Shown: positions 1,163 through 4,242, counted from the first letter of the stretch. The stretch is 28,371 nt of DNA from an uncultured Arcobacteraceae bacterium (GCA_964022095.1 CAXHZO010000025.1:1-28371); one strand, 5' to 3'. Numbers and translations are program-made. The notes: generated by a model not told the origin, from the letters alone.

Positions 1163-1612
1163 TTAACCCATAGCCTGAATACTAGAGTTAGAATTGTTGT
1201 TATTGTTGAAGAAACTTTCAGAAAAAGAGGGCTTGTATTCTTCTTGTTTGTTAAAAGAGTCTAAATTAAAATTAGGATTAATTTGAATACTAAATATGTC
1301 AGTAGAAGATAAAGAATTGCCTTCGTTAGAAATAACCTTATCTTGATACTGAGAAATAAATTGTTTGCAATAGTTATTTTCAAAAGAACTAGACAAATCA
1401 GTACTAGATAATAAAGTAAGCTTGTCTTGTGTAGTATCTAAAGAATTGATTTGAGTAAAAAGATTATTTATATTTTCTAATTTTTCTTCTTTGTTAGATT
1501 CAAACTCTTTTATATATCTGATCATTATATCTTTTAGATTTTCTATCCCTTGATTATTTGATGCAGACTGGCTATTTAGGTCTAGTTGCTCAGCTGCTTC
1601 AAATGTAGCATC
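1163..1612. repeat. Repeat A copy 1 (shared effector C-terminal domain)
   Basis: Matches 24345-24800: near-identical over about 1222-1504, weaker but alignable out to tgtagcatc at 1612. Confidence 0.92.
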
Positions 1613-2560
1613 TCCTCCATTATATTCGATTAGAATATCATCAGAGTTTGTTCCTATTAAAGTGTGGTTTTGATTGTTATTATTTAGATTTGCTGTTTGA
1701 TTTACTAATATTTCAGAAGGAGTATTAAAAGTAATTCTATTTTCATCTGTTTTTATTAAAACATTTGAAAGAAGAATATTTACACTATTTATATCATTTA
1801 AAAGATTTCTTATTTGTAGAGATGTTTGATTTGTAAGGTCTTGTTTTATATATACTATATCATTGATAGTTGCTTTATCAATATCATTATTTTTTAAAGT
1901 TTCGTTTAGATAGAAGTTTTGATTATCTGATGTTGCGTTTGAGATAGTAATTTCATTTGTTGTATTATCATATCTTACACTTTCAGCTAATGTTAAACCT
2001 GATTTTATATCTACTATTTGTCTATAGTTTAGGTATTGAGGGAATATGTCTTTACAGAAGTTTGGGTCATTATTTGCTATATCTTCAATAATAATCTTAT
2101 TTGCAGTTACATCATATACTGTAGTAACATCACTATATTTAAATTCATTAAAATCAATTGCAAGATTGTGTATCAATGCAGTTACATTATAATCTATATC
2201 ATCTCCGAATAGAGCTCCTGCTACTCCTCCAACTAATGCTCCAAGTACTGCTCCTGGTAGTCCTCCTATAATTAAACCTGCTCTAGCCCCTGCCTCACCT
2301 AATAAAAATGCAGAAGCAGCTGTTCCTACTATGTGAGAAAAATTTTTATCTTCATTAAGATGGCTATCAAAAACTCCTGTTACAATTCCATCTAGTATAT
2401 CTACAACTATAGCAACTTTCCCACCAATCCCTTGAGATACAATACCCATTGAACCTGAAAAAGATGCTGCAAGATAATCCTGCCCAAGATTTTTAGATAT
2501 CGTATACTCCATTTTTTGATTATTCAAATTTACGATAACTGTTCCTTCACTACTAGTCAT
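1163..2560 (-). CDS. Chimeric putative effector: N-terminal glycine-zipper (pore-forming-like) domain + RTX-protein-derived linker + conserved C-terminal putative T4SS signal domain
   Basis: GxxxG run (GLIIGGLPGAVLGALVGGVAGALFG). Middle near-identical to 2992-4242; C-terminus near-identical to 24345-25433. ATG 2560 with AGGAG RBS is preferred over TTG 2566. Confidence 0.75.
   Translation of the reverse strand: MTSSEGTVIVNLNNQKMEYTISKNLGQDYLAASFSGSMGIVSQGIGGKVAIVVDILDGIVTGVFDSHLNEDKNFSHIVGTAASAFLLGEAGARAGLIIGGLPGAVLGALVGGVAGALFGDDIDYNVTALIHNLAIDFNEFKYSDVTTVYDVTANKIIIEDIANNDPNFCKDIFPQYLNYRQIVDIKSGLTLAESVRYDNTTNEITISNATSDNQNFYLNETLKNNDIDKATINDIVYIKQDLTNQTSLQIRNLLNDINSVNILLSNVLIKTDENRITFNTPSEILVNQTANLNNNNQNHTLIGTNSDDILIEYNGGDATFEAAEQLDLNSQSASNNQGIENLKDIMIRYIKEFESNKEEKLENINNLFTQINSLDTTQDKLTLLSSTDLSSSFENNYCKQFISQYQDKVISNEGNSLSSTDIFSIQINPNFNLDSFNKQEEYKPSFSESFFNNNNNSNSSIQAMG
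1613..2071. repeat. Repeat B copy 1 (459 bp shared linker domain)
   Basis: Near-identical to 3259-3717 (DPNFCKDIFPQ...SDDILIxYNGG). Confidence 0.95.
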
Positions 2561-3020
2561 TTTCAACTCCTAATTCTAAATTTTTTAAAACTTCTTTTCT
2601 ATTTTCAGCTAAAGATTGATATCCTAATCCAAATAAAGACAATCCCATAAATAGAAAACATTTTTTCTTATTCTTGTCTCGCAGAAGTAATGTTCCAAAA
2701 TAATGTTTATGAATATATAAAGAGGCGTTTAAATCTTTTTTCTGAATTTCATCTTTATTTAATAAAAACCATTCAATAACTACTTTATTTTCATAAATTA
2801 ATAAACATTTAAATAAACAAAGACTTAAAATCATACAACTAAACATTGCTATTAATAAGACTCCCATAAATTGAAGTAATGTATATTCACTAAGAAGTAA
2901 AAATATTATTCCTAATATTAAGGGAACAGTATTAGCTAAAATTGCAAGTAATCTACTCAAATTATTATATTTATACTTTTCTACTATTTGTTTATGCATT
3001 TTTTTTCTCACTTCCCTCAT
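2553..3020 (-). CDS. Inner-membrane putative immunity protein (two TM helices + soluble domain)
   Basis: Two hydrophobic helices near the N-terminus; overlaps the start of the downstream glycine-zipper toxin; distant paralog of 4226-4729. The true start may be ATG 2999 (MHKQ). Confidence 0.65.
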   Translation of the reverse strand: MREVRKKMHKQIVEKYKYNNLSRLLAILANTVPLILGIIFLLLSEYTLLQFMGVLLIAMFSCMILSLCLFKCLLIYENKVVIEWFLLNKDEIQKKDLNASLYIHKHYFGTLLLRDKNKKKCFLFMGLSLFGLGYQSLAENRKEVLKNLELGVEND

Positions 3021-4242
3021 ATCCTTCTAAAGTAGTTACATCAAAGCTTGAACCATAAATAGTATCTGAGTATTTACTTCCTATTATATTTTCTACATTA
3101 ATTATAGTATTTTGAATAGATGTTTTAAAAGCTTGTATGGTTATAGCTTGGGATAGATTAATAGTAATTCCATGTGATGAATTTTCATAAGTTATTGTAT
3201 CATCTCCCTCTCCACCATACAGGACATCATCTCCAGCTCCTGCGATTATGATTTCGTTTCCTCCATTATAATCAATTAGAATATCATCAGAGTTTGTTCC
3301 TATTAGGGTATGGTCTAGGTTATTATTATTTAAATCTGCTTTTTCATTTACTAATATTTCAGAAGGAGTATTAAAAGTAATTCTATTTTCATCTGTTTTT
3401 ATTAAAACATTTGAAAGAAGAATATTTACACTATTTATATCATTTAAAAGATTTCTTATTTGTAGAGATGTTTGATTTGTAAGGTCTTGTTTTATATATA
3501 CTATATCATTGATAGTTGCTTTATCAATATCATTATTTTTTAAAGTTTCGTTTAGATAGAAGTTTTGATTATCTGATGTTGCGTTTGAGATAGTAATTTC
3601 ATTTGTTGTATTATCATATCTTACACTTTCAGCTAATGTTAAACCTGATTTTATATCTACTATTTGTCTATAGTTTAGGTATTGAGGGAAGATGTCTTTA
3701 CAAAAGTTTGGGTCATTTGTAACAGATTCTAGGATGAATTCTTCTTGGGTAACTTTACCATATATTGTTGAATCTTGATATTCAAAGTTCTCATTTAAGT
3801 TATGATAAAGAGCATTAACTATTTTTTCACCATTATCATAAATATCATCACCCCATAAGCCTCCTGCTACTGCACCAAGTACAGCTCCTACAACAGCTCC
3901 TACTGGACCTGCAACGGAACCACCTATAAATCCACCAACAGCATTTCCAATTATTCTTCCAGCTGTCGCACCTAATATTCCAAGCTCATATCCAATTAAT
4001 GCTGTACCTATTAAATTATAATATTCTTTTTGAGGATTCAATTCTTTATCAAAGACTCCTGTTATAACTCCTCCACTTACAGCAAAAACTAATCCTATAG
4101 TTTTACCTGCTGTACCACCAAATTGTTCTGACATTTCACCAACAAACCCTAAATATCCACCAAATGATGATAATGCGATGTCACTTGATTTATTTTCTGA
4201 AACTGTAACCTCATAATCTTCAATTTTAATTAATCCACTCAT
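2992..4242 (-). CDS. Glycine-zipper toxin with Ca-binding RTX repeats, C-terminally truncated
   Basis: Long GxxxG run; RTX nonapeptides AGAGDDVLY and GGEGDDTIT; VENIIGSKYSDTIYG; ends abruptly after LEGYEGS. ATG 4242 has proper spacing from the AAGGAG RBS. Confidence 0.72.
   Translation of the reverse strand: MSGLIKIEDYEVTVSENKSSDIALSSFGGYLGFVGEMSEQFGGTAGKTIGLVFAVSGGVITGVFDKELNPQKEYYNLIGTALIGYELGILGATAGRIIGNAVGGFIGGSVAGPVGAVVGAVLGAVAGGLWGDDIYDNGEKIVNALYHNLNENFEYQDSTIYGKVTQEEFILESVTNDPNFCKDIFPQYLNYRQIVDIKSGLTLAESVRYDNTTNEITISNATSDNQNFYLNETLKNNDIDKATINDIVYIKQDLTNQTSLQIRNLLNDINSVNILLSNVLIKTDENRITFNTPSEILVNEKADLNNNNLDHTLIGTNSDDILIDYNGGNEIIIAGAGDDVLYGGEGDDTITYENSSHGITINLSQAITIQAFKTSIQNTIINVENIIGSKYSDTIYGSSFDVTTLEGYEGSEKKNA
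3259..3717. repeat. Repeat B copy 2
   Basis: Near-identical to 1613-2071. Confidence 0.95.

Follow-up and report, generated by a model that had tools for sequence, protein, structure and literature searches.

An RTX-type toxin gene with an exchanged C-terminal tail beside a divergent type IV secretion-like cluster in an uncultured Arcobacteraceae bacterium

The draft genome of an uncultured Arcobacteraceae bacterium (GCA_964022095.1, here G000; 31 contigs, 2.57 Mb, 28% GC) includes a contig of 28,371 nucleotides (nt), CAXHZO010000025.1 (C25), the whole of which was analysed and is called the window below. One of its open reading frames (ORFs), ORF1, is a three-part mosaic in which the body of a toxin of the RTX (repeats-in-toxin) type is joined to a C-terminal tail domain that also ends other putative effectors, encoded around a gene cluster resembling a type IV secretion system (T4SS). 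Judged from sequence comparison, ORF1 represents an RTX-type toxin body whose RTX end has been replaced by this tail. Taken as a whole, the locus is read, with slightly better than even confidence, as carrying a recent recombinant polymorphic toxin that was moved from a type I secretion system (T1SS) to T4SS-like delivery by a swap of tails. Every long ORF of the window, and every gene of it given below, lies on the minus strand, so that low coordinates correspond to C-termini. The relatives of the toxin derive from Arcobacter and Sulfurimonas, and a homologue of one window protein is labelled Malaciobacter mytili by its source.

ORF1 (1163..2560) encodes 465 amino acids (aa) from an ATG at 2560, with extension to a TTG at 2566 possible, and is identical to the database protein P0015. 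Its N-domain (aa 1-163, 2072..2560) is rich in glycine zippers and contains a hydrophobic stretch at aa 92-119; the match to Gly-zipper_Omp is below cut-off (E 0.002), runs of GxxxG-type motifs are present, and the domain is considered a putative membrane-active toxin module. The middle region (aa 164-316; repeat B, 1613..2071), called mid hereafter, ends in a first RTX-like unit, LIGTNSDDILIEYNGG, and is followed by the tail (aa 317-465, 149 aa; repeat A, 1166..1612), which is predicted to form a helical bundle and then a disordered end rich in N, S and Q. In self-blastn, repeat B (1613-2071) matched 3259-3717, within the RTX-type paralogue ORF2, at 96.7% over 459 nt without gaps (E 0), and repeat A (1153-1612) matched 24335-24800, at the effector gene ORF3, in an alignment of 472 columns with 87.9% identity and 7 gaps opened (E 2e-166). 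Repeats A and B meet at 1612/1613 with zero bases between them, in agreement with an earlier reading of the stretch from its sequence alone (the sequence-only reading), and the junction peptides quoted in that reading are exact: ORF1 has ...SDDILIEYNGG followed by DATFEAAEQLDLNS, ORF2 at the same point has ...SDDILIDYNGG followed by NEIIIAGAGDDVLYGGEGDD, and the counterpart in ORF3 is ...RVDATYEAARQLDLNS. No PF00353 match was obtained for ORF1 at E<=1, and by eye only the degenerate first RTX-like unit is left.

Conservation along the mosaic is uneven. ORF1 and ORF2 share 39-40% identity in their N-domains, compared with 96.7% in their mid regions, and 13 of the 15 mismatches in repeat B fall at 1625-1699, within 90 nt of the junction, leaving a stretch of 345 nt (1700-2044) that is 100% identical. 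Repeat A is similarly patchy against ORF3, with about 45 nt that are about 85% alike, about 80 nt near the junction that are strongly diverged, a core (1250-1504) with a single mismatch, and a last stretch of about 30 codons that is again diverged. By their pattern, the identities in both repeats mark recent gene-conversion tracts. Across the junction, RTX-form relatives (P0064, P0025) read GGDDLFEAG and ORF3 reads VDATYEAAR, and a contig from a wastewater run (X9) agrees with ORF1 for 19 nt beyond the junction, to 1594; the motif in the RTX forms and the extent of the X9 match together place the crossover in a short microhomology (GGD..FEA) at about 1594-1612. The breakpoint that had been called base-precise is thus precise in that the repeats abut, but the crossover itself is a microhomology interval and not one base. 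At about 1733-1759 the mid region of ORF1 is without the LysM insert found in its relatives.

The chimera is held to be real with very little doubt, since the junction-spanning 21-, 31- and 55-mers (20, 30 and 54, respectively) all occur once in the genome, and a 184 nt contig covering 1475-1658 with 0 differences was recovered from two studies (X1 of study P1 and X4 of study P4). Parts of the window occur in 19 public sequencing runs (16 studies), four of which were compared with it; X1 or X4 may be the window's own source, so that at least one of them is independent, and from X9 only the bridging contig was used, its missing cover of the tail and of 1-535 not being taken as absence. No sequence is common to ORF2 and ORF3 at the junction, and P0015 is recorded on 2 contigs. 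Overlaps of exactly 55 nt between contig ends and other contigs point to de Bruijn assembly, in which each k-mer derives from reads. Logan contigs break at the borders of the 345 nt exact repeat. The misassembly at 1612 that the sequence-only reading had asked to be excluded is therefore not what the unique k-mers and the bridging contigs of X1 and X4 indicate.

Full-length relatives with RTX ends were found for both paralogues. The N-domain of ORF1 is 163/163 identical to that of P0064, a 771-aa RTX form from another sample, and 47% identical to that of P0065 (737 aa; assigned by its source to an Arcobacter metagenome-assembled genome (MAG)), which in turn matches the N-domain of ORF2 at 171/173 positions. 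The mid region of ORF1 shares 92-95% aa identity with P0064 and P0065, both of which carry a 42-aa LysM insert there, followed by ...GTNSDDILIDHNGG and long RTX and C-terminal regions; P0064 reads NGGDDLFEAGTGTNYIDGG before its long RTX region. The same RTX-ended layout occurs in P0016, P0017, P0018, P0025 and an 809-aa protein of genome G042, with PF00353 matches in P0017, P0018 and P0025. Seven relatives, from several genera and samples, therefore carry RTX after NGG, and the tail is found at that point in ORF1 only. A 4260 nt X9 contig is 98.8% identical to the window over 1740-3039, which covers the 155-aa gene upstream of ORF1 together with the N-domain and mid of ORF1, and has a 117 nt insert at the LysM site; past 1594 it continues with 149 other letters and then a sequence resembling the C-terminal end of ORF2, so that in this contig the mid region is followed by an RTX-type continuation and no tail. 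The LysM deletion, at ...LIKTDENRI..., is common to ORF1 and ORF2. Because the relatives are RTX-ended and ORF1 keeps just the first RTX-like unit, ORF1 is regarded as the derived form, and a change from RTX to tail is highly probable. P0064 and P0065 thus lend support, in architecture as in direction, to the earlier proposal that the RTX end of a toxin body was replaced.

Of two metagenome scans, one with P0064 as query found nothing and the second gave 17 loci with RTX-form relatives, of which three with useful flanks were annotated and one with few ORFs (L037) was excluded; a scan of genome contigs for toxin relatives, using a small alignment, gave one locus only. In G042, an Arcobacter chromosomal locus (L027, G042:C12 9748-15977) contains the full-length 809-aa RTX toxin, two immunity-like genes and the truncated 473-aa P0016, whose C-terminal end combines two stretches that lie far apart in the RTX region of the full-length toxin.

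Searched against 1.84 billion representatives, a profile built from six tails retrieved just 18 proteins, whose N-domains are mutually unrelated; in 17 of them, no more than one residue separates the end of the match from that of the protein. The partners include a Tle1-like phospholipase (PF09994, three proteins), a lipase-like domain, an ORF3-like domain, the domain of ORF 2-562 and several unknowns, as well as the RTX repeats of ORF4 and a glycine zipper (P0023) that is joined to the tail directly, at another junction. The tail's place at the extreme C-terminus of proteins with unrelated N-domains, together with the RTX-form parents, argues that the RTX end of ORF1 was replaced. An N-domain is also shared by P0057, which has the tail, and P0025, which has RTX (E 2e-7), and this pair and the P0023 fusion indicate that ends were exchanged more than once.

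Six tail genes were recognized in this genome. The profile detects ORF1, ORF3, ORF4, C4:950-2407 and C29:2149-3930, and the sixth is the gene at the contig end, where position 1 continues into the tail core in contigs from X1, X4 and X8 and window 1-55 equals C4:1375-1429. The N-terminal part of this contig-end effector (2..562) is identical to aa 1-187 of P0048, a tail-ended protein of 325 aa. ORF3 (24345..25451, 368 aa) consists of an N-domain and the tail (24348-24800), and an Atlas lead to PF21277 (score 0.94) makes the N-domain a candidate VgrG3-like peptidoglycan hydrolase. ORF4 (25941..27893, 650 aa) has RTX repeats at about aa 390-460 (PF00353 E 7e-14) and a diverged tail (25944-26333; tail-profile E 5e-37), and because it has both, RTX repeats and the tail are not mutually exclusive. 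In the predicted model of the tail, residues 21-110 form a confident (pLDDT >90) helical bundle with no strand, and residues 119-149 are disordered and rich in N, S and Q. A last motif, ..NS.IQ.M., is conserved across the tails, and ORF1 ends ..NSSIQAMG. The tail was detected in 1 of 184 family genomes and a VirB4-like ATPase in 2 of 184, and both lie side by side in this genome; the tail was found in none of the 183 other family genomes, nor convincingly in 400 other genomes of the phylum. A weak tail match in genome G130 is a coiled-coil protein and was rejected, and three marginal partial matches among the phylum genomes (E about 4e-4) were left out of the count.

The tail-bearing lipase-like gene of C4 lies between two paralogous transmembrane genes of 233 aa (C4:233-3105), a homologue of which (221 aa) is found behind the 809-aa toxin gene of G042. 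The end of the window truncates an ankyrin-repeat gene (27890-28371), a paralogue of which, with 84% nt identity, opens C29 (1-516); both contigs end in the same 55-mer. This paralogue begins a second effector locus, in which two signal-peptide paralogues are followed by the tail-bearing Tle1-like gene.

The T4SS-like cluster of the window (7047..23698) comprises about 20 ORFs. It includes a VirB4-like ATPase of 795 aa (13103-15490), recognized by a Foldseek match of its predicted fold. The best match, over the full length (about 870 columns), was to R388 TrwK/VirB4 (E 1.2e-17, Foldseek probability 1.0), and the top 13 matches listed were all VirB4 structures, 11 of them R388 TrwK/VirB4 entries, well ahead of HerA. 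Against the C-terminal domain of T. pseudethanolicus VirB4 the model gave a TM-score of 0.73, and Atlas leads point to VirB4/TraC/TrsE. The family of this ATPase has 13 members in 5.8 billion clusters. Directly upstream is a 312-aa paralogue of its N-terminal third (15487-16425; 34% identity, E 1e-23), and an SLT lytic transglycosylase is encoded at 16428-17009 (PF01464 E 4e-13). A pilin-like ORF (11948-12364) matches PF18895 (T4SS_pilin) below cut-off (20.2 bits vs 26.6), a polytopic protein of 769 aa is encoded at 7047-9356, and an AAA+ ATPase of the Cdc48/FtsH type at 22565-23698 (PF00004 E 3e-19). Comparison of the 769-aa and 795-aa proteins with PDB chain sequences gave nothing or weak matches to the P-loops of HerA and EccC, and for the core and channel parts VirB6, VirB8, VirB9 and VirB10 and the ATPase VirB11, profile searches of the remaining ORFs of the cluster gave no Pfam or NCBIfam match.

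A coupling protein of 631 aa is encoded on another contig (C4:3109-5004; PF12696 E 4.5e-10, PF10412 24.4 bits with a cut-off of 20.5), about 700 nt from the tail-bearing lipase gene. Relaxases were found on C10 and C12 only, to which the TrbL profile matches are likewise confined. Judged by the predicted fold of the ATPase, the coupling protein and the lytic transglycosylase, the cluster appears to be a very divergent T4SS-like apparatus. In the one other family genome with a related VirB4-like ATPase, G067, an AAA+ ATPase near it (L052, G067:C128 7558-8697) shares 26% identity with that of the window (E 3e-33), so that a Cdc48/FtsH-type ATPase accompanies the VirB4-like ATPase in both known apparatus loci.

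ORF2 (2992..4242, 416 aa) consists of an N-domain (3718-4242), mid (3259-3717) and an RTX remnant (2995-3258) with a PF00353 match (E 8e-7; 29.4 bits vs a cut-off of 23). Its alignment with P0064 has a 9-aa gap, corresponding to a 27 nt insertion in X9 at 3022, and similarity is lost after YEGS; with about 90 aa of RTX kept, the stop codon comes after five more codons, some 350 aa short of where P0064 and P0065 end. The cut, at about 3010, falls where the 155-aa gene of the ORF1 cassette begins. From this alignment ORF2 is truncated and not an intact RTX toxin; it most likely lacks the C-terminus of P0064/P0065 and is most likely an orphan.

Small genes precede the putative effectors. Overlapping the start of ORF1 is a gene for a 155-aa protein with two predicted transmembrane segments (2553..3020), its putative cognate immunity protein, and a second protein of this kind (4226..4729, 167 aa), also putative immunity, overlaps the start of ORF2. 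A small transmembrane gene overlaps the toxin start in 4 of 4 loci (twice in the window, and in L017 and G042), and a homologue of the 167-aa protein, a 160-aa ORF in L017, precedes the toxin P0017 in a Sulfurimonas MAG. Pairwise comparisons of the 167-aa protein with the 155-aa protein (E 0.08) and with a 158-aa ORF of C4 (E 0.3) were not significant, and the kinship of these proteins is argued from position and architecture only. Lipoprotein-like ORFs, likewise putative immunity genes, lie upstream of the contig-end effector (578..1147, 189 aa) and overlap the start of ORF3 (25436..25858, 140 aa; signal and Cys judged by eye). Small transmembrane or lipoprotein-like ORFs are thus found upstream of or overlapping ORF1, ORF2, ORF3, ORF 2-562, the C4 lipase gene and the C29 Tle1-like gene, and by this position they are putatively assigned as immunity genes. 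The 189-aa ORF has a paralogue at 5086-5667 (87% identical); the similarity within this duplication (562-1150 vs 5070-5670) ends at the start codon of ORF 2-562 and at an hlyD fragment, and the ORF2/ORF1 block looks inserted between an immunity gene and its effector.

The hlyD fragment (4782..5044) is a pseudogene remnant of a T1SS membrane-fusion protein gene (TIGR01843, E 8e-8 and 1e-6). Matching positions 304-419 of the 422-position profile in two frames and with one TAA, it stands directly upstream of the 167-aa gene and ORF2, which fits a former T1SS context of that cassette. A partial hlyD at C4:15347-15767 has a 3' end 91-92% identical to it at the nt level, the two being remnants of one gene, and is followed by the same spacer and then by a different small transmembrane gene, whose orthologue in G042 is the immunity-like gene before P0016. 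As both hlyD remnants stand before a small transmembrane gene, an ancestral order of hlyD, immunity gene and toxin is suggested by this circumstantial evidence. The C4 region (14919-16220) contains a 261-aa partial hlyD ORF, the orphan immunity-like gene and a transposase-like ORF, the last recognized by eye. Two complete TolC-HlyB-HlyD operons lie elsewhere in the genome (among C4:127207-135592 and C21:136-5333). One TolC-HlyB-HlyD operon precedes a large repeat protein at a contig end, and C3:206514-218297 encodes a 3927-aa RTX adhesin-like protein. Contig C31, which overlaps the end of the T1SS contig C21, has no RTX or tail gene in 4000-11227.

Megablast of window 1-12000 against plasmids gave no match, and a scan of 1-7000 for promoters and terminators was uninformative, promoter-like sites being fewer than in shuffles. 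A near-perfect palindrome (93%) of 30 nt is present at 24114-24143, within a 102-aa ORF downstream of ORF3.

RTX proteins are generally T1SS substrates, an established view (Linhartova et al. 2010, as cited in PMC6759196), and by context and this analogy the RTX forms of the toxin are probably T1SS substrates too. The analogy for the tail is XVIPCD, a domain of some 120 aa in which a folded part precedes an unstructured, Gln-rich tail and which binds the all-alpha domain of VirD4 (PMC8740702); with this model and the genomic context in mind, it is somewhat likely that the tail serves as the signal of the apparatus described here. The proposed sequence of events, in which toxin activity and both secretion routes are what we infer, starts from an ancestor of about 770 aa with a glycine-zipper toxin domain, constant mid, LysM, a long RTX/beta-roll region and a C-terminus, preceded by a small membrane immunity gene. 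The N-domain would act as a membrane-active toxin paired with the two-segment membrane immunity protein, and the RTX-ended toxin of other strains is probably exported by T1SS. In this genome LysM was lost, the dedicated T1SS context would have decayed, and recombination at the GGD..FEA microhomology replaced everything past the first RTX-like unit with the 149-aa tail, which ends at least five other effectors (Tle1-like phospholipase, lipase-like, VgrG3-like candidate, RTX protein and unknown). By docking on the coupling protein, as XVIPCD does, the tail would then bring the toxin into the T4SS-like machine and so to contact-dependent delivery, and ORF2 would be the truncated RTX-type orphan left behind.

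A number of results weigh against this proposal. For the type I route, HlyB, HlyD or TolC genes stand beside RTX-form relatives in none of the three annotated metagenome loci (L033, L038, L030), and none in G042 or L017, so that the homologues sought by the sequence-only reading exist in full length but are without T1SS genes beside them at the loci examined. For the apparatus, the VirB4 profiles PF03135 and PF19044 miss the window, 26 of its 35 ORFs have no family match at E<=0.01, C25 has no VirB11-type ATPase (T2SSE matches lie on other contigs), and the coupling protein is encoded on a contig other than that of the cluster (C4 vs C25); the T4SS identity given to the cluster earlier is supported by the ATPase fold, the coupling protein and the SLT gene, but not by sequence profiles of the core parts. 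The relative of the ATPase in G067 (29% identity), the sole other family genome with one, occurs with no detectable tail. Comparison of the tail with PDB chain sequences gave coiled-coil noise only (best E 0.007; the inclusion of an XVIPCD chain there is unconfirmed), and searches with its fold gave nothing at E<=0.001 in Foldseek and only generic helical bundles (Z<=6.7) by VIA. RTX repeats followed by the tail, as in ORF4, is the classic layout of a T1SS substrate, and the tail could be another C-terminal export signal; ORF1, with LysM lost and amid remnants, could be inactive; and which N-domain, that of ORF1 or of ORF2, precedes the mid-tail unit rests on the assembler across the 345 nt repeat.

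Some of these points would be accommodated if the chimera were real and the tail were not a T4SS signal at all, serving instead another exporter (a dedicated T1SS or an unknown one), oligomerisation or immunity docking, with no switch from T1SS to T4SS. Two complete T1SS operons are present in this genome, the conserved motif occupies the very last residues as in T1SS signals, and the textbook layout of ORF4, the tail-less G067 and a fold that is a generic bundle with no T4SS-specific match all agree with it. It is nonetheless thought unlikely: all six tail genes lie around the T4SS-like cluster or beside the coupling protein, five of the six are without RTX repeats, and the tail is absent from the 183 other family and 400 other phylum genomes, a rarity at odds with the abundance of T1SSs. 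A Tle1-like phospholipase, a VgrG3-like candidate and lipoprotein-like upstream genes are, moreover, typical of contact-dependent injection as described in PMC6536674. Alternatively, ORF1 might have arisen as a side product when cassettes were shuffled by recombination of the repeated constant regions, and be an orphan module in storage or dead and not a functioning effector, as the truncation of ORF2, the hlyD fragment and duplicated lipoprotein gene nearby, the LysM deletion in ORF1 and ORF2 alike, the truncated P0016 behind the full-length toxin of G042, and identical tracts that reveal ongoing gene conversion would allow. This has a rather low probability, given that the frame of ORF1 is intact over 465 aa, its tail is complete with the terminal motif, the immunity-like gene upstream is kept, the junction sequence is unchanged in contigs of two studies, and a full-length toxin has the identical N-domain. 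A wrong joining of two repeat families by the assembler is very improbable; the assembly is a draft whose contigs end in these repeats with 55 nt overlaps, and the junction lies between exact repeats of 345 and about 255 nt, but ORF2 and ORF3 share nothing there, every junction k-mer is unique, and P0015 is known from 2 contigs and the join from error-free bridging contigs of two studies. Hardly any weight is given to the reverse direction, with the tail form ancestral and the RTX forms derived, for which nothing specific speaks apart from the coexistence of RTX and tail in ORF4, and against which stand the seven RTX-ended relatives from several genera and samples, the tail being solely in ORF1 at that point, the first RTX-like unit retained in ORF1, and the derived LysM deletion it has in common with ORF2.

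There is about an even chance that the locus belongs to a rare, undescribed lineage of bacteria-killing T4SS in Arcobacteraceae and their relatives, with a VirB4-like ATPase and a Cdc48-type AAA+ ATPase, no VirB11, its own tail domain (a helical bundle with a conserved terminal motif) unrelated to XVIPCD, and toxins that pass to and from type I secretion by swapping C-termini; the window would then show one such passage, both parental forms being in circulation. If the tail is the signal of the apparatus, the toxin offers a natural before-and-after pair, in which an identical toxin domain has an RTX end elsewhere and a T4SS-type tail here, and whether such an exchange is sufficient to retarget an antibacterial toxin between secretion systems would become directly testable. 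Contact-dependent killing by T4SSs would then extend to Campylobacterota, with a different signal domain, and searches for new effector families could start from that domain, whose 18 representative carriers include several N-domains of unknown function.

Polymorphic loci of the contact-dependent inhibition (CDI) and Rhs types carry variable toxin/immunity cassettes on a constant region, with truncated orphans in tandem. The present locus is like these in its varying toxin/immunity cassettes, its truncated orphan copies in tandem and the 100%-identical tracts of its constant region, and unlike them in having its toxin domain at the N-terminus and, at the C-terminus, a delivery module that is the very part exchanged. 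The T1SS-exported CdzC/CdzD of Caulobacter (PMC5380434) provide, as far as their description in that source goes, a parallel for a glycine-zipper toxin with a membrane immunity protein in a type I export context; they are small and form cell-surface aggregates, whereas the proteins here have 460-810 aa with mid, LysM and RTX modules, and the likeness is one of description only.

A close parallel in overall organization, within what is drawn here from PMC8740702 and PMC6536674, is found in the X-Tfe effectors and their XVIPCD. Both groups combine unrelated N-terminal toxin domains with one C-terminal domain of about 120-150 aa, made of a folded part and a disordered, amide-rich end; both include phospholipases and peptidoglycan hydrolases (here as candidates) with immunity genes upstream, and effector genes, some of them fragmented, around a T4SS and coupling protein. 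According to the review PMC6536674, the main difference between antibacterial T4SS and T6SS (type VI) effectors lies in the sequences recognised for transport. In the comparison with PDB chains the tail showed no detectable sequence relation to XVIPCD, and in the predicted model it is all-helical, unlike XVIPCD's alpha-alpha-beta-beta-beta arrangement, so that the two agree in being bipartite and differ in fold. The killing T4SSs described in PMC8740702 come from Xanthomonadales, Burkholderiales and Neisseriales, whereas the host here belongs to the phylum Campylobacterota, and its apparatus, unlike the X-T4SS, is recognisable only by the VirB4 fold, the coupling protein and SLT, with an AAA+ ATPase and no VirB11.

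That secretion systems share toxin modules is already known. Smlt3024, an X-T4SS effector of Stenotrophomonas maltophilia, has an N-domain homologous to those of 221 proteins, of which only six lack RTX motifs (PMC6759196), and, as here, one toxin N-domain thus occurs with either an RTX C-terminal part of T1SS type or a T4SS signal domain. In Smlt3024, as reported there, the homology is distant and crosses genera, whereas the RTX and tail forms described here are 163/163 identical in the N-domain, the breakpoint is resolved to about 20 nt, and the neighbourhood includes an RTX paralogue in truncated form and a remnant of hlyD. No description of the tail family was found in the literature searched, on Arcobacter antibacterial T4SS effectors and on XVIPCD/RTX. 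What is new in comparison with these systems is a tail family undescribed as far as that literature goes, a very divergent apparatus in Campylobacterota, and an exchange visible at zero divergence, with its breakpoint, both parental forms and the leftovers.

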